A DNA stretch of 64,000 nt from an uncultured Vicingus sp. (lineage in GTDB: Bacteria; Bacteroidota; Bacteroidia; Flavobacteriales_E; Vicingaceae). A model generated the notes under the pieces. That model was not told the origin of the DNA. It saw only the letters and a list, made by a program, of their open reading frames with translations, and did not search any database. Both the position numbers and the translations under genes were made by a program. Location of the stretch: assembly GCA_964371285.1 (NCBI GenBank), contig CAYJMI010000002.1:880-64879 (forward strand), read 5' to 3'. Of the stretch, positions 5,522 to 56,882 are shown in pieces (position 1 is the stretch's first letter; each line of letters opens with the position of its first letter).

Positions 5522-5522
5522 G

Positions 5523-6125: not shown

Positions 6126-6134
6126 TTTGTTTAA

Positions 6135-6253: not shown

Positions 6254-6373
6254 TTAAGATTGGCTAGATTCAGGCAGAATTGAAATACGCATTTTTGTTT
6301 ATCCATTTAATTAATTTTTTCAAAAAATAATTACTCAAATATGAGGATTTTTTTATGTCATTATTAATCATAA

Positions 6374-32214: not shown

Positions 32215-32874
32215 TTATACAGAACAGTAAGAATCCATAAATATTTTAAACTTTTCAATATTTGAATCTTCTGTTATGGTTAATTGCCAATATTCCGAAT
32301 CTTTGTAATTCCTTTTACCAACATTTGATTCCTGATTACAAGTATATAGGTAATAACCTATTTGAGTTTTTAAATCAGCGACTTTCAAATTATTATGATT
32401 TAAACTCACCAAACAATTCTGGTGGGATTCTATACATTCAAAAATATTTTGTTTATTCTTAGGAATTAACTCTTTTAATAAGGTTTCTATTACACCATCA
32501 TCATTATTATTTGGCCATATAAAATAATCAAATTTTACATTTTTATTATTTATTATATCAACTAATTTTCTCTTACAAGCTGCATACCCTTTATTCCCTA
32601 GCCTAGTCCTTTCATAATCAGCATCAAATATAACAATGTTTTGATATCCAGTATCTATGTTATCTTGCAACTCGTTAATATAAATTTGATTTGATAACTT
32701 CGTACACCCTCCTACATCTGTTATTGTAATATCTAGTTGATTATTCTTAATCTTAAATGGTTTTTTTTTTGACTCCTCGTCTCTTAATAATTGGATGCCA
32801 TAAAATAAACGAAGAAAGTCCGAAATAAACACTTGATCAGTTAACCCTTCACAATATATTTTCAATTTAATCAT
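32215..32874 (-). CDS. Toprim-like small protein (DUF4276/RloB-type), putative nuclease partner of the upstream ATPase
   Basis: KIYCEGLTDQVFI (conserved Glu) and NIVIFDADYE (DxD) at Toprim-like spacing; 8-nt overlap with the upstream gene. Confidence 0.6.
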   Translation of the reverse strand: MIKLKIYCEGLTDQVFISDFLRLFYGIQLLRDEESKKKPFKIKNNQLDITITDVGGCTKLSNQIYINELQDNIDTGYQNIVIFDADYERTRLGNKGYAACKRKLVDIINNKNVKFDYFIWPNNNDDGVIETLLKELIPKNKQNIFECIESHQNCLVSLNHNNLKVADLKTQIGYYLYTCNQESNVGKRNYKDSEYWQLTITEDSNIEKFKIFMDSYCSV

Positions 32875-35800
32875 GTGATAACCCTCCCCTAATTTCTATT
32901 TGATCTACATATGCTAAACTAAAACTCGAATATTCTAAAGAGCGTATTTTTAAGTTATTAACCTGCTTCATTTGAACAACTCTTGAAACTGATTGATATT
33001 CTAGACCAAAAGCAGATTCATTTAATACTTCCTTGAAAAATTTTATACATTCATCATTATGAGTTGTTGCTATTATTTGCGTGCCGTCTTCTTTTGCTAT
33101 ATTTAATAAGATCCTCCAAAACTGTTTAAATCTTGAAAAATGAATTCCAGCATCTATCTCATCTATTAATAATATTTTCCCTTTATGAACAGTTAAAAAG
33201 ATAAGAATTCTAAAAAGCTTATTAGCTCCTTCCCCATATTGACTCAAACCTCTATCTTCCTCATAGTCATTATCTCTAATATCTATTGCTCCATCAGTTC
33301 TAACAAAAACTTGTTCTGCATTAGGAATAAATACTCTCAATCGATTTAAAAATTCTTTTTCTAACCTCTTATTTGGTCTAATCTTAGAATCATAAACCAA
33401 AGATAAATCGAATCCATAACCTTTTCCATATGGAATATAGGGTTGATTAGTTCCGTCGTTATATGGTATATTATTTAAAACCTCTAAATCCTTTTCCGAG
33501 AAATAAGGTTTTTCAGTATTAGGTTCAAATTGATAATTTATTTCATAATTCCAAAAGCTTCTCTTATCAAAAAGATTAAAATGAGTGCTTTTTAATTGAT
33601 TATTACAATTTTTGTATTCAGATATAAATTCAGGATTAATATTATAATAAAGGTCTGTTGATTTTGAATTTTCCTTTTTATCAGGGTGTATATTTATTCT
33701 GTCAATATATGCAAATGCCAATCTTTCTAAATATTTTTTCTTTTCAGGAACAAATAACAAAGCTTCTAATAATGATGTTTTACCAATATTATTATCTCCA
33801 ACCACGAGATTAAATAGACCTAAATTTTCTATTATTACATAATCAAACCTTCTAAAATTCTTAATTTCAATATTATAAATATGATTTGGGAACTGTTCCC
33901 TTAGTTCTTTAGGTTGTAAATCAATTTGATCTATTTCTGATTTAGTAAAAGGAAAATATTTAAACTCAAACTTATTAGCTAATTTTTTATATTTATCATT
34001 AATATCTTCAAGTAAAAATCCAGATAAAAAACTATTCTTAACCCACCTATTAAGTACAAAATTAAATATGTTGAGATTTATTAAATTACCATTTAATAAA
34101 TCTTCATAATAACTCACCAATTCTGAGTTTCTATTGTTTTCATGAAATAAATTTTCAACTTTCTGAGAAATAAATAGTAAATCATTATTCTCTATGTCCG
34201 TTGTTAAGAATGATAAGTATAAATATAGATTAGTATAGATATTATTCGATTTCCTTAATGTAGCAAAATTAGCCTGATAAACATCATTCAATTCTTCTGC
34301 AATCTCCTTTTTATTTACTATTTCTATTTCTATTGCTATTCTTCCTAAATAAATAATAATTTCTTCTATATCATTCTTCTTCTTAGCTAATTCTAATTTC
34401 ACTTTTAGATATAGCTGATTTTCAATACCATTGTTTTCAAGAATTGATATTGCCGATTGAAACTTGCCTATCAAATAATACTTATTAGCTATAATTTCAA
34501 TAATATCTCTATCTTCATTAGTACAAATTTCTTCTAAAATATCACAAATTAAAGTGATTTCATCATTATCAGCAGATCTCTCTAGCACATTACGAATCTC
34601 ATCTATAGCTTCTCTTCTCCAAGTTGTAAGTTGGATTATCTTTCTCAAATTAGAACTCTCTCTATGTAAAATTTGTAAGTCAGAAACAGACAATGTAGAT
34701 TCAATGAAAAGAATTGATATTAATTTTTTTAATTGATTATCCTCACTTGGAGATTTTTCAAAAATTTCTATCAGTTTCCCCCAATATTTCCCTTGCCAAT
34801 AACAATCTATTGCATATTCTACTCCTTCACTTCCAACTTCTTTTTCTAAATAAAACAAAGCTGCTTTATCCCAATTCTGGTGAATTTTTTGAATCTCAGC
34901 TAAACATAAAAAATACTCTTTCTTGTTTCCAAGTTTTATAAAGTGACTTGATGCAACCTGTAACAATGGTATATTCCCTTCAAATACTCCTTGTTTTTTT
35001 TGTCTATGAGCATCTTCTTCAAGAATTGATTCAGAACTTTGAATTATTTCGTTAGCATCAAAAATTATTAAATCAGTAAAATTATTAAGATCAACACCTA
35101 CTTTTTTTACCCATTCAGATTTAATATAATTATCAATCAAATCCTTCCAAAAATTATCTTTTGACTCTTGACTATCAATTATTACTAATTCTGTTTGTGC
35201 ACGAGTAACAGCGACATATAGTTTATTATAAAAAAATCTTTTACCATAAATGCCTGCTGTTTCAATTTTTTTAATATACTCTTCTCCAAATCCAAAAATA
35301 GCTACTTCGCTAAAGTCCAATCCTTTAGCATCAACTGCAGAAATTATATTTTTAAATTTTTTTAAAATTTCATACCTTTCTTTATACTCTGGAATTTCAT
35401 CGTAATTAACAGGAACAATTATTGTTTTATACTCAACCTTTTTTTGAAGTTCTATATTATTGGAAAAAGTATTAATATCCACAAAAACATTTAAATGTTC
35501 ATTTTGATACATTACTGGTCTTTTTGAAGTTTGTGGATTTTGTACGTTTGCTTTTAGCTTATCTTTTCTATAATATTGAATAGAATTTGCCACATTAACA
35601 ATTGACTGGGAAGAACGATAATTATAAGTAGGTGTAAAAACCAATTTTGACTGGTCTAATTTATACCCAGTTTTTTCTTTTGTTAATTCTTCATAAATCA
35701 TTGAAGTTAAAACTTCTGATCTAAACCCTGTTGGATTAACTGTTTGAAGTGCATCTCCTGCAAAAACAATTGGATATTGTTCTACATTGGATAAATTATA

Positions 35801-37423
35801 TTTTGCATAAGTAGAAAGTTGCATTATAAACTCTAGTTCAACTTTACTAAAATCTTGTGATTCATCACAGAAAATAACATCAAAGGTTTTATCAATTTCA
35901 ACATTTGAATTAATATAGCGAATAAGTTTTATTTTATCCCAATACCCTTCTTCATTTAGAAGTTTATTATAGAAAGGGGATATTATTTCTGTTTCAATTC
36001 CTTTAAGATCATCCTTCGAAATAATGTCTTTACCTTCTTTTGGCATTTTCTCATCATAATTTTCACTATTAATTTGAAAGTCTAAACTATTCCCATTAAC
36101 ATAAGTACTTATAGTAAACCAAACTAACTCCGCTGAAAACCTTTGTTTAATATGTTTTTGAATATTTGATTGTTCATATAAATACTTAAACTTAGAAAAA
36201 TCTAAATATTTATCTGGTTTAAATTCATTATTATCCTTTGGAATTAGTTCTAATAAGAATTTTTTAAATGGATAAAAATGTTTATCAACATTAACTATGG
36301 CTTCAGGTTCAGATGATAAATCAAATTCTGGATTATTAATTAAAAGATCGTATACTGCTCTTTGGGTATGCCCTAAAAGCTTTTCATTTTCAGTTAAAAA
36401 TATAATATCTCCAGGTATTTCTCCTGCATATTTATAATAATACACATTAGAAAAAAGATAATACAACATTGTTGATTTCCCACTTCCAGCTTGACCATTT
36501 ATATATTTAGGAAATTTAAACTCTTTTAAAAATTCCGTCTGTTCAGGTAATAGCGATAAATTACCTAATTCATTATTTTTTTCAATTTTAACCCATAAAT
36601 CAGCATCATTTATTGCCCAACTTGGATAAGCTTTTGACGCTATACTACTCATATCTTTATAAGAAGTAAATCTTACTTCTTTTTCAAATTTAAAATTTTT
36701 AACTTTCTCCCAATGTTCATTTTGAGTCTTAATATTTGCACCATTTTCAAGCAAATAAAAATTATTATTATCTAGAACAACTTTTATAAATACTACTCCT
36801 ATATCATTATAAATAATATTTAATACTTCATAGGTTTCTGTTTTTTTAATAGAAGTAATAAACTCTTTACTTTCTCTAATAATTTCCTTAATTGTCAACA
36901 AGAATAGTTTTACTTCATCATTTTTCATTCCAACAGTTTTTGAATCGCTCATTGCAAACTTAACCCAAGTCTGAGATTCAAAAATATTATAATCGACCTT
37001 TAACTTATAATCACTTTGCCAAGTTATAAGCTCCTGAGGCGGTGGCAAAATATCATCTTCTCCTTTTTGTTCTCTTAAAATACTTTCTTCAAATCTAGAG
37101 ACATCTTCTTCTGGCAATGGGTTATATGTAAGCCACTTACCGTCCCGTATAGATACATAATCTTCTAACCCATTTTTTTGACCTCTAACAAAATAGACTA
37201 AATACTCTTTGTCATTAATAGAGATGCGTTTTTCTTGAAAAATTATCTCTGAATAAGGATTTTTTATTCTTAAAACATTAATTCCTTTTGTAAAACCTGT
37301 AACTTTTCCAATACCTTTAAGAGTTGTTGAATTTTTATTATTCTCAATAAAAGTGGACACTGCTTTTTTTACATCAGAAGAAATATTATCTATATATAAT
37401 TGGCAATAATGAAATTTCATCAT
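32867..37423 (-). CDS. 1518-aa multidomain protein: unknown N-domain, SF1 UvrD-like helicase, helical repeat region, C-terminal ABC/AAA_21 (OLD/GajA/AriA-type) ATPase
   Basis: Helicase motifs are GQAGSGKST (aa 310-318), FCDESQDF (518-525), FAGDALQTV, YNYRSSQSI, AKGLDFSEV and LYVAVTRAQTELVII. ATPase motifs are VVGDNNIGKTSLLEAL (1207-1221), LSQYGEGANKLF, ILLIDEIDAGIH and IIATTHN. Confidence 0.85.
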   Translation of the reverse strand: MMKFHYCQLYIDNISSDVKKAVSTFIENNKNSTTLKGIGKVTGFTKGINVLRIKNPYSEIIFQEKRISINDKEYLVYFVRGQKNGLEDYVSIRDGKWLTYNPLPEEDVSRFEESILREQKGEDDILPPPQELITWQSDYKLKVDYNIFESQTWVKFAMSDSKTVGMKNDEVKLFLLTIKEIIRESKEFITSIKKTETYEVLNIIYNDIGVVFIKVVLDNNNFYLLENGANIKTQNEHWEKVKNFKFEKEVRFTSYKDMSSIASKAYPSWAINDADLWVKIEKNNELGNLSLLPEQTEFLKEFKFPKYINGQAGSGKSTMLYYLFSNVYYYKYAGEIPGDIIFLTENEKLLGHTQRAVYDLLINNPEFDLSSEPEAIVNVDKHFYPFKKFLLELIPKDNNEFKPDKYLDFSKFKYLYEQSNIQKHIKQRFSAELVWFTISTYVNGNSLDFQINSENYDEKMPKEGKDIISKDDLKGIETEIISPFYNKLLNEEGYWDKIKLIRYINSNVEIDKTFDVIFCDESQDFSKVELEFIMQLSTYAKYNLSNVEQYPIVFAGDALQTVNPTGFRSEVLTSMIYEELTKEKTGYKLDQSKLVFTPTYNYRSSQSIVNVANSIQYYRKDKLKANVQNPQTSKRPVMYQNEHLNVFVDINTFSNNIELQKKVEYKTIIVPVNYDEIPEYKERYEILKKFKNIISAVDAKGLDFSEVAIFGFGEEYIKKIETAGIYGKRFFYNKLYVAVTRAQTELVIIDSQESKDNFWKDLIDNYIKSEWVKKVGVDLNNFTDLIIFDANEIIQSSESILEEDAHRQKKQGVFEGNIPLLQVASSHFIKLGNKKEYFLCLAEIQKIHQNWDKAALFYLEKEVGSEGVEYAIDCYWQGKYWGKLIEIFEKSPSEDNQLKKLISILFIESTLSVSDLQILHRESSNLRKIIQLTTWRREAIDEIRNVLERSADNDEITLICDILEEICTNEDRDIIEIIANKYYLIGKFQSAISILENNGIENQLYLKVKLELAKKKNDIEEIIIYLGRIAIEIEIVNKKEIAEELNDVYQANFATLRKSNNIYTNLYLYLSFLTTDIENNDLLFISQKVENLFHENNRNSELVSYYEDLLNGNLINLNIFNFVLNRWVKNSFLSGFLLEDINDKYKKLANKFEFKYFPFTKSEIDQIDLQPKELREQFPNHIYNIEIKNFRRFDYVIIENLGLFNLVVGDNNIGKTSLLEALLFVPEKKKYLERLAFAYIDRINIHPDKKENSKSTDLYYNINPEFISEYKNCNNQLKSTHFNLFDKRSFWNYEINYQFEPNTEKPYFSEKDLEVLNNIPYNDGTNQPYIPYGKGYGFDLSLVYDSKIRPNKRLEKEFLNRLRVFIPNAEQVFVRTDGAIDIRDNDYEEDRGLSQYGEGANKLFRILIFLTVHKGKILLIDEIDAGIHFSRFKQFWRILLNIAKEDGTQIIATTHNDECIKFFKEVLNESAFGLEYQSVSRVVQMKQVNNLKIRSLEYSSFSLAYVDQIEIRGGLSHD

Positions 37424-37496
37424 AAAATAACTTTTTAGACTCTTTTAGCCAAGTCTCTATTTTTAATTTTTATTAAATCTAAAATACCCAAAATAT

Positions 37497-37518
37497 ATTA
37501 CTTTTTACAAAAAGTAAT
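37497..37518. promoter_or_regulatory. 22-bp palindrome in the divergent intergenic region between the two candidate defence operons
   Basis: attacttttt-ac-aaaaagtaat, a perfect 10-bp inverted repeat. Confidence 0.3.
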
Positions 37519-37851
37519 CAAAATATAGTTAAACTTAACTATTAACATTCTTTACTAAGAAAATATATTAAATAACAAGACTACAGAGATTAACTCATCA
37601 AAAGTTTTAACCCCTCTATATTTTTATAATTTTTTTCCAAACCTTTTTCTGATATAAAGGCCAAACACTTTTCGGTTTCCGATTTATACAGTACTCAAAC
37701 GTAGTAAATAAAATCGAATTTATCTATGTGTTTAAACATTCAACTAACATTGCTATTTTTTTATATTTCAAAAACCTAGATACCCTTAAACTTTGTAAAT
37801 TAAAAATTAGGTGTAAAATGAAAAATCGATTAGGCAAACTCAATAATTGAG

Positions 37852-37859
37852 TATCTTTG
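37852..37859 (+). promoter_or_regulatory. Bacteroidota -7 promoter box TAtcTTTG
   Basis: 31 nt upstream of the ATG at 37891. Confidence 0.35.
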
Positions 37860-37890
37860 ATTTATTCAATATGTAATATAAAATAGAATA

Positions 37891-38820
37891 ATGAACGATA
37901 TAAAAACCTTGATTGGATCATTTAAGAAAGTTCCCGTCTGGAAAGATTTTATTAAAGAAAATTTTGATAGAAAGACAAGCAACTATAATTATGCTGATGT
38001 TTCAAATATAAAGGTTGAATATGATAATCAAACCTACTTCTATCCAACTAAAATTATTTTAAAAGATGGGTATGTTAGACAAAAAAAAAATATACAAAAA
38101 GTAGAAAATACATCTTTAAATAATAAACCAGTAAAAATTACTGAAACAACTAGTATTATTCCATTTAGTTTTTATAAAAGAAATGAAAAATATACAGGAG
38201 ATTTATTTGAATGTCTTGACGATATTTTATGTGATAATGATATGAAAATAAAAGATTATGGATTTTACTCTCCAGAACTACTCTCGTATAGAAATACACC
38301 CCTTTTTAGTATTGATTCTAAATTAAGGTGGTCTTCATATATGTTAATTCTAGAACAAGAAAAACCAAAGACTGAAGTTTCAAAAGAGGCCCCTGCTGAA
38401 TTAAAGGATATTTTAGCAGATTATGGTATTAATTACAATTATGAAAATGAGTTAAATAATTATACCATTATCCTTTTCCCTATGGCTTTTGTTAAGGCAA
38501 TAGAAAATAGAATACAAAAAAAGGATGGAAGAGAATCAATTTTTTTAGTTTTAGAATACAATCAACTTGGCTTGTTCTTTTCTTCAAAATTTGAAATTAC
38601 AATTGATATAATAATTAAAGATTTTAATCAGAAAATAATATATAGAAAAAATTATCCTATCGAGTTTCAGAAATCAAAATATCAAATAGTAAATATATAT
38701 CCCGAGAAAGATGGAGAAATAGGTTATTGTTCTTTTTCAATAAAGATAAATAATGCTATTGTTGATACCTCCTCTGGATATTACATCCGTGATATAAAGG
38801 TAAATATTAAACCACAATAA
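37891..38820 (+). CDS. Hypothetical protein, first gene of a three-gene operon
   Basis: 309-aa ORF with no motif I recognise, no signal peptide and no TM; 1 nt from the next gene. Confidence 0.6.
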   Translation: MNDIKTLIGSFKKVPVWKDFIKENFDRKTSNYNYADVSNIKVEYDNQTYFYPTKIILKDGYVRQKKNIQKVENTSLNNKPVKITETTSIIPFSFYKRNEKYTGDLFECLDDILCDNDMKIKDYGFYSPELLSYRNTPLFSIDSKLRWSSYMLILEQEKPKTEVSKEAPAELKDILADYGINYNYENELNNYTIILFPMAFVKAIENRIQKKDGRESIFLVLEYNQLGLFFSSKFEITIDIIIKDFNQKIIYRKNYPIEFQKSKYQIVNIYPEKDGEIGYCSFSIKINNAIVDTSSGYYIRDIKVNIKPQ

Positions 38821-38821
38821 A

Positions 38822-39709
38822 ATGAGGAGACCGATATTTGAAAAAGCTCCTGATTATCCTGTCCGTGTAGCAGTTTGTTCTTTATATTCGTTTTTAGAAG
38901 TAGATCCTTTTTCTGTAAAAATTGATGCTGAAAAAATGAAAAAGATTGATTTCATTCTAGAACAATCTAAAGGAGTAAATTTTATATTATTTCCTGAATA
39001 TACTTATTCTGATGTATTACGTCTTAAATTACAGAAGTATTGTGATGATAATGATTGTATTATAATTGCAGGAAGTGGATTGGAAAAAACACCAGAAGAT
39101 ACTTTTTATGCTTATTGTCCTGTTTTTTCTCCAAATAATGAACTAACTAAAGTCTATAAAAAATTTATAACTCCATCTGAAAAAGTTTATGCTGCTAATA
39201 AAATAGTTCCTTACCCTAATGAAACTCAAAGAATAATTAGATTAAATGCAAATTCATTAGACGACTACTGTTTTACTATTTCAGTATATGTATGTTATGA
39301 TTTCATACAAGAAAATAAGAAAGAAAGAACCGATATTATTTTTGTTCCACAATATGAAAAATCTCCACATATGTTTATTAATGAAGGTGATAGGATTTCA
39401 AAAGGAGAGAATTGTTTTGTTTTAGGTGCCAATAATGTAGATAATAATCAAAGAAGCTTAGGATTTGTTGGACTCAACTCTACTATAATTAATGCATTAT
39501 CTAATAAATGTTGGCGTCCATCAAGTTATAATGATGGAGACAAAGAAAAGAAATTTCCTTATCATCATACTATAATATATGATACAACTGGGGAACGAAT
39601 CTTAATTCTTGATATCAATCTTTCAAAGCCCTATTCTCTGTCTCATGATTATAGTGTTAACGAAACGATGCCAGTAGTTATACCAATTAAAATAATTGAA
39701 ATAACTTAA
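38822..39709 (+). CDS. Carbon-nitrogen hydrolase (nitrilase) superfamily protein
   Basis: VRVAVCS first strand; FILFPEY (E59), VYKKFITPSE (K113) and ISVYVCYDFIQE (C158) give a Glu-Lys-Cys triad context and spacing typical of the superfamily. Confidence 0.65.
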   Translation: MRRPIFEKAPDYPVRVAVCSLYSFLEVDPFSVKIDAEKMKKIDFILEQSKGVNFILFPEYTYSDVLRLKLQKYCDDNDCIIIAGSGLEKTPEDTFYAYCPVFSPNNELTKVYKKFITPSEKVYAANKIVPYPNETQRIIRLNANSLDDYCFTISVYVCYDFIQENKKERTDIIFVPQYEKSPHMFINEGDRISKGENCFVLGANNVDNNQRSLGFVGLNSTIINALSNKCWRPSSYNDGDKEKKFPYHHTIIYDTTGERILILDINLSKPYSLSHDYSVNETMPVVIPIKIIEIT

Positions 39710-39714
39710 ACACT

Positions 39715-40932
39715 ATGCAAAAGAATGAAAAAAATAATTTACTTGATTTCTTAGGGCAAGAGAAACCTGTTAATCAATACAAACAGTTTTTTAAAATGCA
39801 TCTAATTAATCTTAGTAATAGACAAGAAATATTAACTAAACTAGTTCATTTATGTAATGAAGTCCGAAAAACTGAACCAAAATTTGTGTTTAGTCCTGAC
39901 CCTGAAAGACACAAATTGGAAGTTAAAATTGATAGTTTTCTCAAAGAAAACTTTGATGATGAAATTATAAAGTTATTCAATAAAGAAATCCCCACTCTCA
40001 AACCAAATAGAAAAGATAATGAATTTGAAGACTCATTTTTATTAGGATTATTAGCAGCAATGTCTGATTCTTTTGAACAACTTAATGAGAAATATAAAAA
40101 AGAATGGAACTATAAAACAAATTTCTTAAATTTTCTTTATGATTGTTTATACCACTATGGTTTGCACCCAAATATATTAATAAGGGATGCTGAAATCAAT
40201 AAATCATTTAATTTAATTATCTACCATAATTATAGAAGTGATACTAAACTTCTAGATTTTAAAATTTTGATGACTTATGAAGAATTTGATAAAAGTTTTA
40301 TCAGTCAATATGTAAAACAAAAGCCAATAAAAATGGGTGGTAAATTAATTCCTTTTGAAAATATACATGAAGTAAAAATCACAACTAGCTTATTAAAAGA
40401 AGATGAAATAGAGTTATTTGCTTTAAAAAATCGATTTTGTTGGACAGAGAATAAAAAAGATTATCTCTCATTTATTAATTGTTCTAAGGATGAAACAGAA
40501 ACATATCATCCTAATCCATTTGATGAAACAACACACAATACTGAATTAAATAAATTTCTTATTGAGGAAATAAAACACTATCTAATATCTTATCCTAAAT
40601 CATTTAAATTATACATGAGTGCCTTAAGTAAATTTAATCAAGGTAATCTTGAAAGAAATGTATTGGATGATTTAAGACTATCGCTTGAATTATTATTAAG
40701 GGAAATATTGAACAATAAAAAATCTTTGGAAAATCAATTATCAGAAGTTGGAAATTATCAAAATAAAAGAGGGGCTACTCGAGAGGCGACTAATATGTTT
40801 CACAAGTTGATAGAGTATTACACTAAATACCATAATAGTTATATTAAACACGATGATTTAGTTCAGAAAAATGAAGTTGAGTTTGTTTTTGATTTAACAG
40901 GAACATTTATTAAATACTTGATTAAAGAATAG
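39715..40932 (+). CDS. Hypothetical protein, third gene of the operon; helical C-terminus with a possible HEPN/DUF4145-like Rx6H
   Basis: 405-aa ORF, 5 nt after the previous stop. LRLSLELLLREIL ... REATNMFH (R356-H363) is only suggestive. Confidence 0.6.
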   Translation: MQKNEKNNLLDFLGQEKPVNQYKQFFKMHLINLSNRQEILTKLVHLCNEVRKTEPKFVFSPDPERHKLEVKIDSFLKENFDDEIIKLFNKEIPTLKPNRKDNEFEDSFLLGLLAAMSDSFEQLNEKYKKEWNYKTNFLNFLYDCLYHYGLHPNILIRDAEINKSFNLIIYHNYRSDTKLLDFKILMTYEEFDKSFISQYVKQKPIKMGGKLIPFENIHEVKITTSLLKEDEIELFALKNRFCWTENKKDYLSFINCSKDETETYHPNPFDETTHNTELNKFLIEEIKHYLISYPKSFKLYMSALSKFNQGNLERNVLDDLRLSLELLLREILNNKKSLENQLSEVGNYQNKRGATREATNMFHKLIEYYTKYHNSYIKHDDLVQKNEVEFVFDLTGTFIKYLIKE

Positions 40933-41008
40933 ATTGTTAAATCACAACCGACTAATTAAGATTAGAGAAAAATGTATTGAAAATTAATACCTTTTTAATT
41001 GAAAGTTA

Positions 41009-41785
41009 CTATATCTTACTAGAATAATATTCTTTAAACCAGTCAGGAACAATGTCTTTATCAATTACATCCCAATTCTTAATGTTATCTTTATCCAGTT
41101 TAAAATGAGCAAATAATGATTGTTTACCATCGCCATCTTCCGAATTGTCAAAATAAAATGCCTGATAAGCATATTGAGATGCTTCATGAAGTAAATCCAT
41201 TGAACGATAATACCTATCGGTTATTTTATCTTTAGGGACATCATGACCACCTTGTTTAACTCTTACTTCAACACGGTATTGATTAATGGCAGGTGATTTA
41301 GTTGAAATAAAGTATAAATAAACTTTATATCCAGCTCTCACAGCCTCTTTCATAATATCAACTTTGCTAGGATGTGAAAAAACCGTTTCAAAAGAGAATT
41401 TTTTTCGCTCTGCTAATAATTTTTTTCTTAACACATGTGCAATTATTTGTGCTAAATGCTCATCTGCCTTTGGTTCTACCAAATGAATTGTATTTTCTGT
41501 AAGTTTAAATGACGATTTGAATAGTTTTTCATTAAAACTATTCCCAACTAATCCTGAATCCAAGGCAATCCTTACAAACTCTTCTTCTTGAAGATTTATC
41601 TTGTATTTTCTAAAGGAACATTTGCCTTTTCTCAGTTCTTTAGCAATTAAATCAGCATTTACATAAATACCAAAATCTATAGGCACATTATTTACTTTAT
41701 GGTTTCGTACTTTGTTAATGATGGTGCTTTTCCCAGATCCATTTGGACCGGCAAAAACCCTCATTCTTAATGTTCCGTTAGTCAA
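41009..41785 (-). CDS. Zeta-toxin-like P-loop kinase family protein
   Basis: VFAGPNGSGKSTI Walker A; GGHDVPKDKITDRYYRSMDLL signature of the zeta/COG4185 family. Confidence 0.75.
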   Translation of the reverse strand: MTNGTLRMRVFAGPNGSGKSTIINKVRNHKVNNVPIDFGIYVNADLIAKELRKGKCSFRKYKINLQEEEFVRIALDSGLVGNSFNEKLFKSSFKLTENTIHLVEPKADEHLAQIIAHVLRKKLLAERKKFSFETVFSHPSKVDIMKEAVRAGYKVYLYFISTKSPAINQYRVEVRVKQGGHDVPKDKITDRYYRSMDLLHEASQYAYQAFYFDNSEDGDGKQSLFAHFKLDKDNIKNWDVIDKDIVPDWFKEYYSSKI

Positions 41786-41999
41786 GGATTAGTTTTTGAT
41801 TTTTGTTATTCGCTTCAATTTTTTCAATCTTCTCAACTGTTCCATCTTGGTATTCTTTGACTACCCACCCTTCTCTGGCGACAACAATATAACCCAAAAG
41901 TTCCATAGCTTTTTCTGAGGCTTCTTGGAAAGCTTCTGTTGATTTACGTATTAGAATACGTTTAGTGAAATACGACTTATTTTTTTTCGAATCATTCAT
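41778..41999 (-). CDS. Small protein upstream of and overlapping the zeta-like toxin, putative antitoxin
   Basis: 73 aa with an 8-nt overlap with the toxin gene. Assigned by position only. Confidence 0.45.
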   Translation of the reverse strand: MNDSKKNKSYFTKRILIRKSTEAFQEASEKAMELLGYIVVAREGWVVKEYQDGTVEKIEKIEANNKNQKLILD

Positions 42000-42085: not shown

Positions 42086-42307
42086 TCAAATTTGTTTTTC
42101 AATCCTATCTATTAAATACGATGCTGAAACACCTAAAGCTTTGGAAATACTAAAAATGGTTGTTAATGATGGTTGTAATTTACCGTTTTCCATTTTGGAA
42201 ATAAAAGTAACATCCAGATTACTTAATTCAGCTAATTTTTCTTGAGTAAATCCTTTCTCAATTCTCAGACTTTTAAGTGTATTACCAAATGCGATTTTTA
42301 ATTCCAT
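42086..42307 (-). CDS. XRE-family helix-turn-helix regulator
   Basis: LKSLRIEKGFTQEKLAELSNLDVTFISKMENGK is a classic Cro/C1 HTH. Confidence 0.8.
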   Translation of the reverse strand: MELKIAFGNTLKSLRIEKGFTQEKLAELSNLDVTFISKMENGKLQPSLTTIFSISKALGVSASYLIDRIEKQI

Positions 42308-43329: not shown

Positions 43330-44076
43330 ATGAAAATCCAATACGCATCAGACCTTCATCTTGAATTTCCACAAAACAGAAACTGGATTGCTCAATATCC
43401 AATCATACCTGTAGGAGATGTTTTAATCCTAAATGGAGACATTACCATTTTAAGAAAAGGCTTTGAAAATGACTCTTTCTTTGATTTTGTTTCTGAGAAT
43501 TTTAAGCAAACCTACATTATCCCAGGTAATCACGAATTTTATGGAGGTTATGACATGAGAAATGTTTTGGAGTTAAATCTTGATATACGCCACAATGTTA
43601 AACTTTTAAATAACCAAACGATTAATTTTGGTTCAACAAAAATTATTTTCACTACTTTGTGGACACACATTAGCAATAGTTTAATTGAGAATTATTTAAA
43701 CGATTTCCATAAATCCTATTATAAAAACACCCGACTAAATACAAAAAATTACAACCTACTCCACCAAGAATGTGTTGCATTTTTAGAAAAGGAATTAGCG
43801 AATAACAACTCCGAAAAAACAATTGTGGTTTCTCATCATATCCCTACTGAAAAAGCCAATGGTTTTGTTGGTGGTGACCCAATAATGGGTCAAGCTTTTG
43901 TGGTTAATTTAGAATCTTTATTAGAGAAATACTCCATAGATTATTGGATATATGGTCACTCTCATAGAAATAAAGATTGTGAAGATTTTGGAATACAATT
44001 TAAAAGTAACCAGTTGGGATATGTACACTGGGATGAACATAAAGATTTTAATAGAGAAGCCCTAATCGAAATCTAA
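43330..44076 (+). CDS. Metallophosphoesterase (calcineurin-like)
   Basis: ASDLHLEF, LNGDIT, PGNHEFYGG, VVSHH, YGHSH metal-ligand motifs in canonical order. Confidence 0.8.
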   Translation: MKIQYASDLHLEFPQNRNWIAQYPIIPVGDVLILNGDITILRKGFENDSFFDFVSENFKQTYIIPGNHEFYGGYDMRNVLELNLDIRHNVKLLNNQTINFGSTKIIFTTLWTHISNSLIENYLNDFHKSYYKNTRLNTKNYNLLHQECVAFLEKELANNNSEKTIVVSHHIPTEKANGFVGGDPIMGQAFVVNLESLLEKYSIDYWIYGHSHRNKDCEDFGIQFKSNQLGYVHWDEHKDFNREALIEI

Positions 44077-44083
44077 TGTACTT

Positions 44084-44260
44084 ATGAAAACACCGAATAA
44101 AAAAAGTTTGTTCGAAATTAAACTTGATGAACTTAAAACTAATAAAGAAAACGTCTATGCTTTGATGCAACAACAAGCATCCGACCCTGAAACCATTGCT
44201 TACTATGAGCAACAAGCAAAAGAGTTGGGCGATATTGATATTGAAATTCTAGAAGACTAA
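44084..44260 (+). CDS. 58-aa acidic helical protein, unannotated (below track cutoff)
   Basis: Hand translation MKTPNKKSLFEIKLDELKTNKENVYALMQQQASDPETIAYYEQQAKELGDIDIEILED*. It fills the gap between same-strand genes. Confidence 0.3.
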   Translation: MKTPNKKSLFEIKLDELKTNKENVYALMQQQASDPETIAYYEQQAKELGDIDIEILED

Positions 44261-44286
44261 ATGTTTATAGTTTTAAAGCAATAACC

Positions 44287-45060
44287 ATGAGCTATACCAC
44301 CATAAAAAATAAAAAGCAATATCAGGAGTATTCCGATAAGGTTATAGAGTTGGCTTCAAAAAAACCTACTAAGGAGATTGAAGATGAAATGGAATTGTTG
44401 GAACTCCTTATTGATAACTATGAAAGTAAGATTTACGCTACTGAAACGAAAGACCCTATTGTGTTGTTAAAAAGCTTGATGGAAGTCCATCAGCTTAAGA
44501 GTGTTGATTTAGTTAATATTTTAGGAATTCAGCGAAGTGCTGTAAGCCAAATATTATCCTACAAAAAAGGGCTTTCTAAAGATGTTATCCGCAAACTATC
44601 TGAACACTTTAAATTATCTCAAGAGGCATTTAATAGAAGCTATGAACTTTTATCACGTTCAAATCAAAGAAATATTTCCAAAAAGAAAAAAGAAACAACT
44701 TATTTACTTAGCAACCCTAATAATGCTAAAGCCTTAGAAGAAAGCAAACAAGAGATTGAACAAGGGGAAACCATTCGATACAAACTATTGGAACTAAAGA
44801 AAAAGATTGGTAACAAGGGATTAGTAAAAAAATACCTGGTTAAATCAACCTTTTGGGATGCCGAATTTGAGAGTTTAGATCTTGAAAAAGATAAAGGCTA
44901 TATTATTTCAAGAATTGCTGAAAGAGGAACAGATATTGAAGTGAATTTTATCATATCTTATTATCCAAAAGAAGATGTTCTTTTTGTCGTAAACAACTCT
45001 CCTGAAATAACACCAAAAACAAAAAATTACTTCAATACCATTGTTTACGAAAGCTGCTGA
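44287..45060 (+). CDS. HigA-like HTH antitoxin-type N-terminus fused to a DUF6922-like C-terminal domain
   Basis: The N-terminus (IKNKKQYQEYSDKVIEL...LLELLIDNYE...LKSVDLVNILGIQRSAVSQILSYKKGLS) matches the HigA/YddM layout. The C-terminus has STFWDAEFESLDLEKDKGYIISRIAERG. Confidence 0.6.
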   Translation: MSYTTIKNKKQYQEYSDKVIELASKKPTKEIEDEMELLELLIDNYESKIYATETKDPIVLLKSLMEVHQLKSVDLVNILGIQRSAVSQILSYKKGLSKDVIRKLSEHFKLSQEAFNRSYELLSRSNQRNISKKKKETTYLLSNPNNAKALEESKQEIEQGETIRYKLLELKKKIGNKGLVKKYLVKSTFWDAEFESLDLEKDKGYIISRIAERGTDIEVNFIISYYPKEDVLFVVNNSPEITPKTKNYFNTIVYESC

Positions 45061-45100
45061 CTATTTAAAGTTTATATCAGTAACTTCGCTGCTCAATTAA

Positions 45101-45817
45101 ATGAGTAGAATTTTAGCCATATCAGACATTCACGGTTGCGGAAAAACATTTATAAAACTGCTACAACAAATCAAATTCAACAAAACAGACAAACTTTATT
45201 TGCTTGGCGATTTTGTTGATAGAGGAACAAACACCAAACTATTAATCGACCACATTTTAAAATTTAAGGCAGAGGGACATTTAATTGAAAAATTAATGGG
45301 AAACCATGAGGAATTGATGTTAAACAGTGTTAACTCCAATTCAGACCATGAAAGATGGTTGAGAAATGGTGGAAAAGAAACGCTTAAAAGTTTTGGAGTA
45401 ACCAACTACAACGAATTGGAGCAGCAATACAAGTTGTTCTTTAAATCCATGCTGCTTAAAGCTGAAGTGGATAATTATATCTTTGTTCATGCAGGAATAA
45501 ACAACCTTCAGTTTAAAGACCCGTTTTTACCAAGTGTGGTTTTGTGGACCAGGAATTGGTATGAGTTTTTGGATTACAAATGGTTAGGAAACCGTTATGT
45601 AATTCACGGTCATACGGCACAAACACAACTCGATATTGAAATTCAGTTTCACAACTTTGAAGAAAAAAGGGTGCTTAATATTGATGCAGGTTGTTGTTAC
45701 ACCAAAACTTATTTGTTAAAATCAGAAAGTCAGAACACTAAACCAGAATTAGGAAAACTTTGTTGTGTCGATTTAACTAACCGAAAAATATATTTTGAAG
45801 ATAACTGCGAACTTTAG
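45101..45817 (+). CDS. PPP-family metallophosphoesterase (Ser/Thr phosphatase / ApaH-like)
   Basis: ISDIHGC, LGDFVDRG, GNHE, VHAG, HGHT motifs. Confidence 0.8.
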   Translation: MSRILAISDIHGCGKTFIKLLQQIKFNKTDKLYLLGDFVDRGTNTKLLIDHILKFKAEGHLIEKLMGNHEELMLNSVNSNSDHERWLRNGGKETLKSFGVTNYNELEQQYKLFFKSMLLKAEVDNYIFVHAGINNLQFKDPFLPSVVLWTRNWYEFLDYKWLGNRYVIHGHTAQTQLDIEIQFHNFEEKRVLNIDAGCCYTKTYLLKSESQNTKPELGKLCCVDLTNRKIYFEDNCEL

Positions 45818-45901: not shown

Positions 45902-46765
45902 TTATTTACCAAAACCATTATCTTTAAATGGATTAGGTTTGTTTTTCATAACTTGATAATGTTTCTGTTCATTAGTTTTATTCCCCATCACTATATCCTT
46001 CATATCCTTTTGAATCTTCTTAATCTCATCTTCAGCTTCTAGCTTTGTAATCTCATTCAGACTTACCATAACCTTTAATTCATTTATTTTATCAGTGTAT
46101 GGTGCTAATAAGTGACTGGTATATTTCATATAACTCTTTTTTCTCTCCGAAACAGGCACCCCTCTTTTCAATACAATCGGCACATCAGCATTGTTTCCAT
46201 AACTTTCAACCTTTAAACGTATATATTCATTATAATCCGTTTGCAGTTTTTCTAAATCTTTTTTTAAACACCTAACATTTCTACGTTTAATTACATTAAC
46301 CCCTTCTCCATTTTGGTTTTTCCACTTTTGTTCTTTTCTGATGATTTCACCCATCACAATAATATGCATGTGGGGATTGTTTTCGTCATTATGTATTACT
46401 TTAGAAACGATATTATGTTCTCCATGTTTCTCTTCTATAAACTTTGAGGCGAAAATCAGGAAAGAATCACTATAGTAGTAATAATCATAAAATTCCTTTC
46501 TTCTCTCACCCACTAAACCTATAATATATTCAGCTCCAATATTTGCATTAGTTGTTTCTTTCAATTCTTCTTTTTCACCAACTTCATCAAAAATCTGAAG
46601 TAGTGTTTTATTTTCTAAATCTGAATATTTATTCAATTCCATCTTATCTGAATTAATATTTGCTGGAATATTATTTTCAGCATATTCTCGATAATTATGC
46701 TCTTGTATTTTCCCCATATCACTTCTTGATATGGGTCTAAATCTAATCAATCCTGTTACACTCAT
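45902..46765 (-). CDS. MobV-family (Mob/Pre) plasmid mobilisation relaxase
   Basis: N-terminal IQEHNYRE...NINSDKMELN and the HxDE..PHxH signature VIHNDENNPHMHIIV. Confidence 0.75.
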   Translation of the reverse strand: MSVTGLIRFRPISRSDMGKIQEHNYREYAENNIPANINSDKMELNKYSDLENKTLLQIFDEVGEKEELKETTNANIGAEYIIGLVGERRKEFYDYYYYSDSFLIFASKFIEEKHGEHNIVSKVIHNDENNPHMHIIVMGEIIRKEQKWKNQNGEGVNVIKRRNVRCLKKDLEKLQTDYNEYIRLKVESYGNNADVPIVLKRGVPVSERKKSYMKYTSHLLAPYTDKINELKVMVSLNEITKLEAEDEIKKIQKDMKDIVMGNKTNEQKHYQVMKNKPNPFKDNGFGK

Positions 46766-46958: not shown

Positions 46959-48242
46959 TCACATCGACACACCCCTACTCCTACTTTTAATATACGATTC
47001 TTGAATTTTAGAATCTATTTTAATTATTCTTTCAGTTGAAATTTTTAATTCTTCAGCATATTTTCTCCAGCCCCCTACCCCATTTTTTACTTCTAATAAA
47101 ATTGTTAGGCTGTTTTTAATTCCAACTTTTTTTGCAAGTGTTTGAAGATCGTCAACCGAAATATCTTTTGATTTTCCATTTATTGTCATTTGATGACTAT
47201 TAACCATCCGACTGCTTGCATTATAAGAATACGCTAAATCATAAGCTGGACTTAACCGCCATTCTCCGTTTTTATTCATTAAAAAACTGATGTTCTTGGT
47301 ATGGTCGTCATTATTACAAGAAAAAACATTAAAAGCAGCTCGTCTAAATAATTGTTCTTTATCATGATAAGTTAGGTTTAACCCATTCATTATACGAAAA
47401 GCATCTTCATAACTATATGTTCTAGGATTATTATAATCCATGTGAGCCAGTCCACAGAGCGTTTGCATATGAAGTTTTTCGTTTCCAACACGGTCAAATC
47501 TTTTAGTCATAAAATGAAATCTTCCGTTTTCTTCTAATAACTTACAGTTGGTCATTTCTATTCTTGCATCTTTAGCCATTTTATGATAGCAAAATTCTAT
47601 TTTACCATATTCCTCTGGGTCTCCCAATGCTTTATTAGTTACACCATCAAATTTTAACAACCAATGACTAAATCCTTCGGGTGCATCAACTTGACCTGAA
47701 CGAACTTCATTGGTATCTTCATTCAAGGCAATAACCGCTTTTGCCCTCGCTCCTCCTGCCGACGAAGAAACACTTACGATACTTTCTATTTCCTCAATTG
47801 TGCTTTTGAAATTTTTCCTGTGATTGATAACATCTGATGCCACTTTAACTAATTCAGCAATATCTAATGATATGGATTGATTCATTTTGTTTGGAGTAAT
47901 AACAGGTTCAAATTCTAAAGCTCCCATCCCCCTACTCCCAATATACGCTAACTTCTGAATCGCATTAATCTCTCTTACCCCATTCGCTTCTGCCCACTGG
48001 TTTAATACACTGTCACCCCATTTATCGGGCAAAGAATCAGCCAACATTCCAGGTAGTCCTTTAAAAGTATCTTCGCTTAATGAATTGAATTGATATACTT
48101 CAGGAGTTAATGGCATATATATTGGAGCTGGGCAAATACCTTTTTTGATAAATGAATCTTCATATTGAAAAGCACAATTGTTGTTTTCATCAATAGAACA
48201 CAGTCCTACAATATTTCCCCATAATTTAACCTTTACTACCAT
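46959..48242 (-). CDS. hipA: HipA-family serine/threonine kinase toxin
   Basis: N-terminal coupling domain (LWGNIVGL...), catalytic FNVFSCNNDDHTKNISFLM and LSPAYDL. Confidence 0.85.
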   Translation of the reverse strand: MVVKVKLWGNIVGLCSIDENNNCAFQYEDSFIKKGICPAPIYMPLTPEVYQFNSLSEDTFKGLPGMLADSLPDKWGDSVLNQWAEANGVREINAIQKLAYIGSRGMGALEFEPVITPNKMNQSISLDIAELVKVASDVINHRKNFKSTIEEIESIVSVSSSAGGARAKAVIALNEDTNEVRSGQVDAPEGFSHWLLKFDGVTNKALGDPEEYGKIEFCYHKMAKDARIEMTNCKLLEENGRFHFMTKRFDRVGNEKLHMQTLCGLAHMDYNNPRTYSYEDAFRIMNGLNLTYHDKEQLFRRAAFNVFSCNNDDHTKNISFLMNKNGEWRLSPAYDLAYSYNASSRMVNSHQMTINGKSKDISVDDLQTLAKKVGIKNSLTILLEVKNGVGGWRKYAEELKISTERIIKIDSKIQESYIKSRSRGVSM

Positions 48243-48553
48243 TACCGAGCTCTTTTACGTTTTTTTAATGTTTCTTTTAAAACTTCTCTTGGAGATTTAA
48301 CCACGGTAGGAATAAGGAGTTCAATATTATCCAATATCTTTAATCCCCTCATGATTTCTATTAATGATACCATAGAAGATGGCGACCCATTTTCAATATC
48401 ACTAATTCTGGACCTGCTCACTCCCGTAATCTCTGACAGTTGTTTTTGTGAAATGTTTTTACTTACTCGGTATTCTTGAAGCTTCTTTCCAATCAGCTCC
48501 AGAATTTCATTGTTGTTATAAAAATCGAATTTCATGTAACAAATATACGACAT
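48242..48553 (-). CDS. hipB: HipB-like XRE-family antitoxin
   Basis: LQEYRVSKNISQKQLSEITGVSRSRISDIENG HTH; 1-nt overlap with hipA. The likely start is the internal ATG (MKFDFYNN). Confidence 0.7.
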   Translation of the reverse strand: MSYICYMKFDFYNNNEILELIGKKLQEYRVSKNISQKQLSEITGVSRSRISDIENGSPSSMVSLIEIMRGLKILDNIELLIPTVVKSPREVLKETLKKRKRAR

Positions 48554-51777: not shown

Positions 51778-52463
51778 TGCTAAAGGACGATCACAACCCA
51801 ATATCTAATGTTCCTAATCCTTCAATAAAGAAAGGTACAATTAAAGAAAAGCTACTTATTTTTCTGGAAGAAACATTATTTAAATTTCAAGAGCATTTTA
51901 AAGGTAAAGTAAATGAATCTGAAGAGAATCTTAACGAACAACTTGGAAAAACACTAACTTATTTTTCCAAAAATGAAGCTTTTATTTTTCAAGCAGAAAC
52001 TAAACAAAAGCAAGGAAAAGGAATTGATAGGCGAGTTGATATAGGTGTGTTTAGGCATTTCTCTGACCCAAACCCTTTCTTCACTATTGAGGCAAAAAGG
52101 TTGTCAACTTCAATTCCAAATAATAGAGAGAAAGAATATGTCCTAGGCAGTGACCCTACCAAATATACAGGCGGTATAGAAAGATTTAAACATAATATTC
52201 ATGGTGTAAACTTGGAACATAGTGCTTTAATTGGGTATATTCAAAATGAAAATGGAAATCACTGGTTCAATACTGTTAACAGTTGGATTCAAGAACTAAT
52301 TGATAATAAAGTCAATTCTCCTTTAAAATGGTTTTCAAATGATTTATTAATTAACACTTGCGGTTTTCAAGATTTTAGATATGCAAAATTCATTTCAGAA
52401 AATGTAAAAGTCGACAAAACTAAAATTAACTTAAATCATTATTTTGTCAATTTGTGTATATAA
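51777..52463 (+). CDS. Putative PD-(D/E)xK nuclease coupled to the methyltransferase
   Basis: RRVDIGVF ... FFTIEAKRL (D...ExK). Its start overlaps the methyltransferase stop (TAATG). Confidence 0.5.
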   Translation: MLKDDHNPISNVPNPSIKKGTIKEKLLIFLEETLFKFQEHFKGKVNESEENLNEQLGKTLTYFSKNEAFIFQAETKQKQGKGIDRRVDIGVFRHFSDPNPFFTIEAKRLSTSIPNNREKEYVLGSDPTKYTGGIERFKHNIHGVNLEHSALIGYIQNENGNHWFNTVNSWIQELIDNKVNSPLKWFSNDLLINTCGFQDFRYAKFISENVKVDKTKINLNHYFVNLCI

Positions 52464-55241: not shown

Positions 55242-56882
55242 ATGCAAGATACTAAACCAGAAATCGTACGTAAAGGTAATTTATTAATTGCTTCAAAACT
55301 TAATTTAACTCGTAATGAGTCTAGAGTTTTAGAGTTGGTATTCGCTCAAATAAACCCTTTTGAAGATGTATCATTTCAAAAACAATATAGAGTTGAAGTT
55401 GTTGATTTGGTAAAAATTAAGAAGAATAACAAAGTGTACATGGAGTTAGAAGATATCGCTAATGGTCTAACTTCAAAGAATATTCACTTGAGACAAGAAG
55501 ACGGAAGTTTTGAATTCTTGACGATTACCAATATGGTGAAGTACGATGCCGACGAAGGAGCGATATTCGTTGAGCTGAATAACAACTTGTTGACTTATCT
55601 TTTGAAATCGCCCAAGCAAATTGAATCCGAAAAAAAACAACTGGAATTAAAAGAAAAGAAAGACCGAATAGATGCTTTAAAAACAGAAAAGGCAGGTTGG
55701 GCATATACTTCATACCAATTAAAATACCATTTAATACTTCAATCCAATCATGCTTTACGTTTTTATGAACTACTGAAGCAATATGAATCCATCGGAAAAA
55801 GAGTTTTGTATGTGGAGGAAATAAAAATTTTATTAGAAATAGAAACAAGGTACAATGCGTACGCCGATTTTAAACGAAATGTTATATTAATTGCCCAGAA
55901 AGAGCTGAAAAGTAAAACCGATATTTGTTTTGATTTTGAAGAAATAAAGAAAAGAAGACGTGTTTATGCCATTCGGTTTACCATTTATAAAAATAATAGG
56001 GTAGAGGAGGGGCTTAGTAATAAATCTAAATCTGAACCAAAAGTTGAAAGCTCACAAGAATTTCTAAATAGCAATTTCGATGATACTATTGCCGAGTTAA
56101 AAAAGCTAAAAAAACCATCTGATGAAGAAATAACAGACCAAAAGGCTCTTCAATTAATTAACCGTTTTGGTGAGGAACATATAAGAAAATGTATTTCTTT
56201 ATTGCAAATGGAAGATAAATCGACTAAGAATAACTTTGTTGGATTTGTGATTAAAGCAATAGAAAACAATTGGCTGGATGACAAAATATTAGAAATAGGG
56301 CGTAAGGAAAAAAAAATAGAAAAGAATAAAGAGAAGAAACAAGAAGAAGAACGCCAAAAAAGAGAAGAAGAATACATTGATAACTTATTTGGTAAATATT
56401 GGGAAAACCAGTTAGAATTGCTATTAGCTTCTGTAAATATTGATACAGAAGTTAGCAACTACCTAGAAACCAAAGAAAATTTGAGAGAATATCGGGAGTT
56501 AAAGATAGATTTAGAAAATAGAAACATCTACTCCATGAATTGGTCATTATTTATAGGTTGGTTGCAGGAACAAAATCCTCAGGTAAAATTTCTTACAAAA
56601 GCGGAATTTAAAAACAGATACTATACCAATAAGAATCTAAAACCAGTAGATAAGATAGTGGTAAACAAAAAGAATGATTTACCATTATTTTCACAAGATG
56701 AATTGGTTGGCAGGATTGTAAAAAAAGATACAGTAGAGGATACTTCAAAAAGAAAAGCAACAAAGATTCCTATTTCTGATATTCAAGAACTAGCAAAGGA
56801 GTTGAATTGTTCTGTTGAAGAGGTGATAGCTAAAAATGGATACAATATTGAAGGAGATTTTGCTGTAAAATATGATATCTAA
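55242..56882 (+). CDS. Iteron-type plasmid replication initiator (Rep_3/RepB-like N-terminus, Lys/Glu-rich extended C-terminus)
   Basis: KGNLLIASKLNLTRNESRVLELVFAQINP and YQLKYHLILQSNHALRFYELLKQY are typical of the winged-helix Rep_3 family. The gene is immediately downstream of the iterons. Confidence 0.8.
   Translation: MQDTKPEIVRKGNLLIASKLNLTRNESRVLELVFAQINPFEDVSFQKQYRVEVVDLVKIKKNNKVYMELEDIANGLTSKNIHLRQEDGSFEFLTITNMVKYDADEGAIFVELNNNLLTYLLKSPKQIESEKKQLELKEKKDRIDALKTEKAGWAYTSYQLKYHLILQSNHALRFYELLKQYESIGKRVLYVEEIKILLEIETRYNAYADFKRNVILIAQKELKSKTDICFDFEEIKKRRRVYAIRFTIYKNNRVEEGLSNKSKSEPKVESSQEFLNSNFDDTIAELKKLKKPSDEEITDQKALQLINRFGEEHIRKCISLLQMEDKSTKNNFVGFVIKAIENNWLDDKILEIGRKEKKIEKNKEKKQEEERQKREEEYIDNLFGKYWENQLELLLASVNIDTEVSNYLETKENLREYRELKIDLENRNIYSMNWSLFIGWLQEQNPQVKFLTKAEFKNRYYTNKNLKPVDKIVVNKKNDLPLFSQDELVGRIVKKDTVEDTSKRKATKIPISDIQELAKELNCSVEEVIAKNGYNIEGDFAVKYDI

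Follow-up and report, generated by a model that had tools for sequence, protein, structure and literature searches.

What do three tightly packed genes in a defence island of an uncultured Vicingus sp. (Bacteroidota) have to do with one another? The genes lie in a stretch of 64,000 nucleotides (nt) of contig CAYJMI010000002.1 (assembly GCA_964371285.1, positions 880 to 64,879), which we refer to as the window. All three are encoded on the forward strand: g1 (37891–38820; 309 amino acids, aa), a putative cytoplasmic beta-rich partner; g2 (38822–39709; 295 aa), a divergent nitrilase-superfamily (carbon-nitrogen hydrolase, CN-hydrolase) enzyme and putative effector; and g3 (39715–40932; 405 aa), a PDC-S32-family protein. 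Only 1 nt separates g1 from g2 and 5 nt separate g2 from g3. These sizes, strands and gaps agree exactly with an initial annotation made from the sequence alone, which had read the three open reading frames (ORFs) as one new defence operon. Comparison with other genomes leads to a different grouping: judged by sequence, g1 and g2 are an obligate, translationally coupled two-gene cassette that is free of a reverse transcriptase (RT) and was previously uncatalogued, and g3 is best described as an independent single-gene defence candidate of the PDC-S32 type, juxtaposed to the cassette and not part of it.

The initial annotation had identified g2 as a CN-hydrolase from its motifs, and the motifs and the residues E59, K113 and C158 were found exactly as described and are invariant in the homologues. 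The expected match to the Pfam model CN_hydrolase (PF00795) turned out to be sub-threshold (17.9 bits, E = 2.1e-3, as compared to a gathering score of 23.2 bits), so the assignment of g2 to the nitrilase superfamily is based on its fold and its catalytic residues. Two PADLOC defence models gave low-scoring matches as well, i.e., CARF_nitrilase with E = 1.7e-4 over the nitrilase part only (profile positions 312–384 of 457) and RTasNitrilase with 14.8 bits (E = 2.6e-3). An NCBIfam search with g2 gave no match, and sequence and profile searches against PDB returned chance-level matches only, none of them a true one.

Using Foldseek with the AlphaFold2 (AF2) model of g2 (pLDDT 88.5, pTM 0.89), we were able to retrieve 128 PDB chains at E ≤ 1e-3 (best 6e-11), and the best 50 of these 128 matches are all nitrilase-superfamily proteins (probability 1.00, TM-score 0.42–0.62), with which g2 has the alpha-beta-beta-alpha sandwich fold in common. 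The named matches are beta-ureidopropionase, N-carbamoylputrescine amidohydrolase, AmiF formamidase, aliphatic amidases, Nit3 and Nta1. E59, K113 and C158 each directly follow a beta strand in the model, as in known nitrilases (residues were equated to those of solved enzymes by motif and topology, not by residue-level superposition). Across 24 sequences of the g2 family, E59, K113, E120 and C158 are invariant; with a distant sister clade added (described below), P58-E59, G84, K113, C158-x-D160-F161, P176 and N204 are still invariant, and position 120 is either E or D. The model and the alignment point to a divergent nitrilase-superfamily enzyme with an intact catalytic set, most likely a cytoplasmic thiol amidase whose Glu-Lys-(Glu)-Cys active site is complete and predicts its activity. 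In line with the initial annotation, no transmembrane segments or signal peptides were found in g1, g2 or g3 (Kyte-Doolittle mean over 19 residues at most 1.19). The g2 family is small, with 32 clusters (90% identity) among 5.8e9 proteins, all of one architecture and with no fusions.

The claim that the proteins flanking g2 match nothing was borne out for g1 and failed for g3, which belongs to PDC-S32 (E = 8e-47; see below). For g1, Pfam, NCBIfam and PADLOC gave no match, and PHROGs gave one weak match that is unusable (E = 0.014). Its relatives form 17 clusters among the same 5.8e9 proteins, and only 32 of them turned up when 1.84e9 representatives were scanned exhaustively with an HMMER profile (complete ones are about 290–336 aa long, and a few are fragments), all with a single architecture and without fusions. 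Because the relatives share one architecture and occur only beside a nitrilase-like gene, g1 is, on present sequence data, a dedicated partner and not a modular sensor that is reused elsewhere. Its AF2 model (pLDDT 85.5, pTM 0.80) is dominated by beta strands, with an all-beta C-terminal third and a few short helices. Conservation in the extended family is concentrated in the C-terminal two-thirds, where S143 (in DSxxKWPSY), an NRI motif, E215, I277 and the C-terminal SGxYIRxIK (with Y298 and R300) are near-invariant. Foldseek searches of PDB and BFVD with the g1 model returned matches that include accessory domains of GH2 enzymes, the Ig-like domain of Brr2 Sec63 and cytokine receptors; these matches are generic (TM-score about 0.2), and we rejected homology of g1 to Ig-like, GH2-sandwich or Brr2 domains. 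A search of the g1 profile against PDB found no match.

The pairing of g1 with g2 was followed across loci gathered by exact look-up and by scans of genome and metagenome contigs, with tblastn run for all three proteins. g1 lies immediately 5' of g2 in all 20 other loci that have upstream sequence, the two genes overlapping by up to 8 nt or lying up to 10 nt apart (at L022 and L026 the contig ends before the upstream side of g2 becomes visible). None of these 20 loci contains g3, so the trio that the initial annotation expected to find conserved as a unit is reduced to g1 and g2. Loci with a g1 closer to that of the window also tend to have a closer g2 (correlation of the identities: r = 0.70, p = 0.007). 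Downstream of each of three remote g1 relatives (profile E-values of 1.7e-14, 7.9e-8 and 3.2e-4) there follows a gene encoding 292–322 aa that carries the motif series IKIAxCxF / hhIFPE / CGT / K...SPYD / hLICYDF / hIVPM, and from these motifs we take the downstream genes to be the divergent nitrilase-like sister clade mentioned above. With a GC of 56% at one of the remote-relative loci, the wider family extends beyond Bacteroidota. The persistence of the linkage over this degree of divergence strongly supports a functional pairing of g1 and g2. None of the PADLOC models calls g1 or g2, and the carriers of the cassette are defence islands and mobile elements, mainly of Bacteroidota.

How does this pair relate to known defence nitrilases? 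The initial annotation stated that no anti-phage system with a CN-hydrolase effector was known, which proved incorrect: such systems include DRT1/UG1, UG5/DRT11, UG6, UG29 and Rst_RT-nitrilase-Tm, and CARF-nitrilase and NACHT-CN-hydrolase proteins have been catalogued as well. In DRT1/UG1, the nitrilase is the effector domain of an abortive infection system, and in filaments a C-terminal lid keeps it closed; its substrate is still to be found (PMC13275509). For UG5/DRT11, the RT and its fused nitrilase suffice for defence, whereas UG5-small and UG6 encode the nitrilase separately, beside the RT (PMC13436386). Both DRT1 and DRT11 require their nitrilase domain, which was recently shown to be the module that kills or arrests the cell, and both have an abortive-infection phenotype. 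Rst_RT-nitrilase-Tm is a further defence system with a nitrilase (PMC9122126), and UG29 is also among the RT-nitrilase defence systems. Bacterial NACHT proteins, too, have CN-hydrolase among their listed effector domains, and a CARF_nitrilase model is part of PADLOC. The experimentally characterised defence nitrilases all come with an RT.

The class 3 UG/Abi RT-nitrilase systems (DRT1/UG1, UG5/DRT11, UG6, UG29 and Rst_RT-nitrilase-Tm) resemble the cassette in having an intact nitrilase as the presumed effector in a defence-island module, and in UG5-small and UG6 the nitrilase is encoded apart and beside its partner, as g2 is beside g1. What defines these systems is an RT, fused or adjacent, whereas g1-g2 has none: no RT domain was found in g1, in g3 or in their neighbours, either in the window or in the related loci, and g1 has no RT motifs. 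The cassette also has no transmembrane protein. CARF-nitrilase and NACHT-CN-hydrolase proteins use the CN-hydrolase as the output domain of a conflict-system sensor, a role that is also proposed here for g2, but their sensors are fused and recognisable, whereas g1 is a separate protein without a recognisable fold. We found no CARF or NACHT domain in g1 or g2, and no CRISPR-Cas match among the scanned neighbours. The novel element is the pairing of an RT-free nitrilase with a beta-rich partner.

Based on these comparisons, we propose that g1-g2 is a conflict module in which g2 would be an amidase effector and g1 its controller, a reading to which we assign a probability of roughly 0.55. A narrower version, put forward tentatively and a little short of even odds, is that the pair is an RT-independent abortive-infection anti-phage system, in which a stand-alone nitrilase-fold amidase would be placed under a beta-sandwich sensor or inhibitor of a new fold family. 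In the conflict-module proposal, g1 would be the specificity or regulatory partner, acting either as an antitoxin-like or lid-like inhibitor of g2 or as a sensor of the invader that licenses g2; by analogy with DRT1, its conserved C-terminal strand is a candidate lid over g2. Once activated, g2 might hydrolyse an amide in an essential metabolite (e.g. NAD+, or a glutamine/asparagine-type or pantetheine-type compound) or deamidate a protein, and the infected cell would stop growing or the invader would be blocked, as proposed for the DRT1 nitrilase domain. The suggestion of a new amidase-effector defence system is reasonable for g1-g2, given the nitrilase fold, the defence/mobile island and the missing PADLOC call, but it does not extend to three genes.

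Several observations weigh against this proposal. g2 scores the defence nitrilase models no better than the generic Pfam model, and neither Foldseek nor the profile search against PDB gave g1 a recognisable sensor, DNA-binding or antitoxin fold. The cassette is very rare (5 loci in 185,579 species-representative genomes), and no copy of g2 was found in IMG/VR viral contigs, INPHARED phages or PLSDB plasmids. Defence genes accompany the cassette at 8 of about 13 distinct loci, which is a qualitative association, and at several loci all neighbours are unannotated. A pooled PADLOC scan of 99 neighbour proteins returned mostly redundant GajB models and no usable enrichment figure, so we regard the association as suggestive.

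Among the alternatives, the one that survives best, which we still consider unlikely, is that g1-g2 is a toxin-antitoxin (TA) or addiction module that stabilises plasmids or islands, with g2 as the toxin, g1 as the antitoxin and no dedicated anti-phage role. The order of the genes (partner first, enzyme second) and their translational coupling are typical of type II TA systems, two of the cassettes (those of the window and L015) are found on elements with a Rep3 initiator, and ParDE, zeta and HipA are among the neighbours. On the other hand, proteins of the g1 family are 300–320 aa long, lack a DNA-binding domain and show no likeness to known antitoxins (g1 itself, with 309 aa, has no helix-turn-helix (HTH), ribbon-helix-helix or AbrB match, unlike a small DNA-binding antitoxin), and our literature search found no TA toxin with a nitrilase fold. 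TA and abortive-infection defence are not mutually exclusive, and this alternative overlaps with the conflict-module proposal.

We find it improbable that the pair has an accessory metabolic function, in which g2 would act as an amidase or carbamoylase on some amide from the environment and g1, without catalytic activity of its own, would be its chaperone or bind the substrate. Metabolic nitrilases (beta-ureidopropionase, N-carbamoylputrescine amidohydrolase, AmiF, Nit2/Nit3 and aliphatic amidases) do provide the closest structural matches of g2, sharing its fold and the Glu-Lys-Cys (+Glu) residues (E-values down to 6e-11, TM-score 0.5–0.6), and three loci (L001, L013 and L018) have only unannotated or metabolic neighbours. 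But g2 is only 12–16% identical to these enzymes and far diverged from all curated CN-hydrolase families, and it lies in an island setting and is obligately tied to a partner that is not an enzyme, whereas metabolic nitrilases need no dedicated 300-aa beta-rich partner. No transporter, regulator or pathway gene is kept beside the pair, the neighbours change from locus to locus, and the extremely patchy spread, the low GC and the island or mobile setting also speak against a metabolic role.

Still more doubtful is the idea that g1 is itself the substrate or product carrier of g2, which by deamidation or acyl transfer (as known for Nta1 and Lnt) would turn it into a modified protein with a structural or toxic role. 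Some nitrilase-superfamily enzymes do act on proteins (the N-terminal amidase Nta1 is among the Foldseek matches of g2), and the strict 1:1 pairing and the highly conserved C-terminal SGxYIRxIK of g1 would fit; this idea is purely inferential, however, and no conserved Asn, Gln or Cys stands out in g1 as an acceptor, the deeply conserved residues being S143, E215, I277, Y298 and R300 instead. Very improbable, and largely refuted by the comparative data, is the three-gene model of the initial annotation, in which the 309-aa and 405-aa proteins serve a nitrilase effector as its sensor and regulator: the shared strand, the two short gaps and the lack of a terminator between the genes make co-transcription probable here, but g3 is missing from all 20 other g1-g2 loci, g1 and g2 are missing from all five full-length g3 loci, the match of g3 to a PADLOC candidate that stands alone as a single gene spans the entire profile, and the g3 family is far bigger (230 as compared to 17–32) and reaches other phyla.

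What, then, is g3? Its residues 187–405 align to positions 15–232 of the 237 positions of the PADLOC model PDC-S32 (E = 8.3e-47, 158 bits), so that its C-terminal 219 residues cover the whole model. The expectation that PADLOC would not call the locus was thus correct for g1 and g2 and wrong for g3; and g3, as a member of a catalogued single-gene candidate family (PADLOC PDC entries are candidates), is not the regulator of a trio that it had been proposed to be. Our literature search found no publication on PDC-S32 and no function assigned to it. We detected 230 homologues of g3, other phyla included; about 40 of them are Bacteroidota forms of about 400 aa, and many others, from Burkholderia, Gallionella, Orbus and others, are 240–255 aa long. 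The long and short forms have the last ~115 aa in common (50–60% identity), and their N-terminal halves are unrelated, the Bacteroidota one being different and longer than that of the 240–255-aa proteobacterial PDC-S32 form. g3 combines an N-terminal half specific to Bacteroidota with a helical C-terminal domain that is widely conserved and contains the motifs RNxLDDLRLSLELLL, NxKSLENQ and YYxKYxNxYVKHDD. The conservation of these ~115 aa is striking for an uncharacterised domain, for which we found no Pfam family and no PDB relative; the g3 profile gave chance-level matches only when searched against PDB. A HEPN-like Rx4-6H motif in the C-terminus was considered and rejected, since the alignment shows no conservation of its R and H.

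Full-length g3 homologues (L007–L011; five loci in three distinct places) are found beside an AbiH gene and a pP_pnuc protein, beside an Mrr nuclease, or alone or among housekeeping genes, never with g1 or g2. These homologues are single genes in variable and often defence-rich settings, and the position of g3 beside g1-g2 is a juxtaposition of the kind common in defence islands and not a conserved system. In this genome, g3 is probably co-transcribed with g1-g2, because the gap is 5 nt and no terminator was found.

The genes lie in the most AT-rich part of the window, as the initial annotation had noted: GC over 31–41 kilobases (kb) is 0.24–0.28, as compared to 0.31 for the whole window. The cassette itself (0.265) is below its surroundings, and g3 has a GC of 0.251. 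Between g1 and the divergently oriented AbiL-like gene upstream there is an AT-rich intergenic region of 467 nt (37424–37890), and the spacers upstream of g1 in other loci are shorter (93–368 nt). The proposed Bacteroidota-type -7 promoter box TATCTTTG is indeed present on the forward strand at 37852–37859, 32 nt before the g1 ATG. Its motif TAnnTTTG is not enriched in the window (92 occurrences, where shuffles predict 115); by itself the box therefore has little weight, and we consider it no more than plausible as the promoter box of g1. No sigma-70-type signal stood out near the genes, and no terminator-like site was predicted within 37300–41200. Rfam and tRNA scans of the window, including the 467-nt spacer, were empty and found no noncoding RNA family, so there is no sign of an associated noncoding RNA as in some RT systems.

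On both sides of the three genes we found the flanks that had been described, i.e., a helicase/ATPase module upstream and a zeta-toxin pair downstream. The former includes a gene on the reverse strand (32867–37423) for a protein of 1518 aa, in which an N-terminal region without assignment is followed by a UvrD-like helicase and, at the C-terminus, by an ATPase of the AbiLi/AAA_21 type (PDC-M38A-like; PADLOC: AbiLi 3.6e-37, PDC-M38A 3.7e-29). It is overlapped by 8 nt by a DUF3226/PDC-M38B gene (219 aa) on the same strand, within 32215–37423. By these matches the two genes resemble a two-gene system of the AbiL/PDC-M38 type that is unusual in its fused helicase, and the fusion recalls GajA and GajB combined in one polypeptide. 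The zeta toxin gene (reverse strand; TTG start as listed, ATG at 41764) lies downstream of g3 and overlaps by 8 nt with an upstream ORF of 73 aa on the same strand (both within 41009–41999), which has no family match and is presumably the antitoxin. Next to this pair is another ORF of 73 aa, of the XRE-type HTH family (42086–42307, reverse strand).

Further along (43330–45817) there is a protein of 257 aa whose N-terminus matches PADLOC PD-Lambda-2_B (1.4e-21) and whose C-terminus is DUF6922. It lies between two calcineurin-like metallophosphoesterase genes, one of which weakly matches PDC-S10; this may be a further candidate defence cluster. It is followed by a Mob_Pre relaxase (45902–46765), a HipA kinase toxin with a 103-aa upstream gene in HipB-like position (46959–48553, reverse strand), a type IIG restriction-modification enzyme of 992 aa and then an unannotated 228-aa gene with a 1-nt overlap (48799–52463), and a Rep3-type replication initiator (55242–56882). 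The relaxase and the initiator suggest that the window represents a plasmid or a mobilisable element that has integrated. A megablast search of its 52–64 kb part against plasmids gave no match, and no near-identical plasmid was found in PLSDB. At the other end (about 11–25 kb) the window contains heavy-metal-type efflux operons of the resistance-nodulation-division (RND) class (HlyD with HMBD, OEP). One ORF among them (20536–24930, reverse strand) encodes 1464 aa with a complete transporter of the AcrB type (RND; ACR_tran, residues 6–1035) and, at its C-terminus, an outer-membrane factor domain (OEP, 1277–1462), which, if it is not a frameshift artefact, would be an unusual fusion of an inner-membrane pump with an outer-membrane channel.

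The neighbours of the cassette differ at every locus, and functions in conflict or mobility recur among them. The clearest defence-island neighbour is found at L012, in a Bacteroidota metagenome-assembled genome, where a complete Gabija system (4951–8848, same strand; GajA of 680 aa, 4e-178; GajB of 623 aa, 1e-157) ends 228 nt 5' of g1-g2. A PDC-S35 TIR protein (1.4e-89) and a PIN gene lie upstream and a PglZ-domain gene lies downstream of the cassette at L004. Others are ParDE (L005), DUF5343 with HEPN_Swt1 (L017), an integrase with a TIR-pentapeptide protein (L019), a Rep3 initiator 3 kb from the cassette together with UmuC, SRAP and RadC (L015), HNH, RadC and a DNA methylase (L002), and IS110 (L001). 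The copy at L013 (CAJCJB010000286.1) lies on a 17-kb contig binned as 'Candidatus Saccharibacteria'. Because the contig has 35% GC and its cassette shares about 50% identity with Flavobacterium copies, it may be a mis-binned Bacteroidota contig and not a real case of carriage in the candidate phyla radiation.

Should g1-g2 be a TA module or a metabolic enzyme instead, the main value of this analysis would be the corrected gene grouping and the recognition of g3 as a PDC-S32 member. If the conflict-module proposal is true, the cassette would be a minimal two-protein system (compact, about 600 aa) and would offer a far simpler route to the substrate of an immune nitrilase than DRT1 and DRT11, which are large RT fusions forming filaments. 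It would also represent an independent recruitment of the nitrilase class into conflict systems, and g1 would be the founding case of a new family of sensors or regulators.

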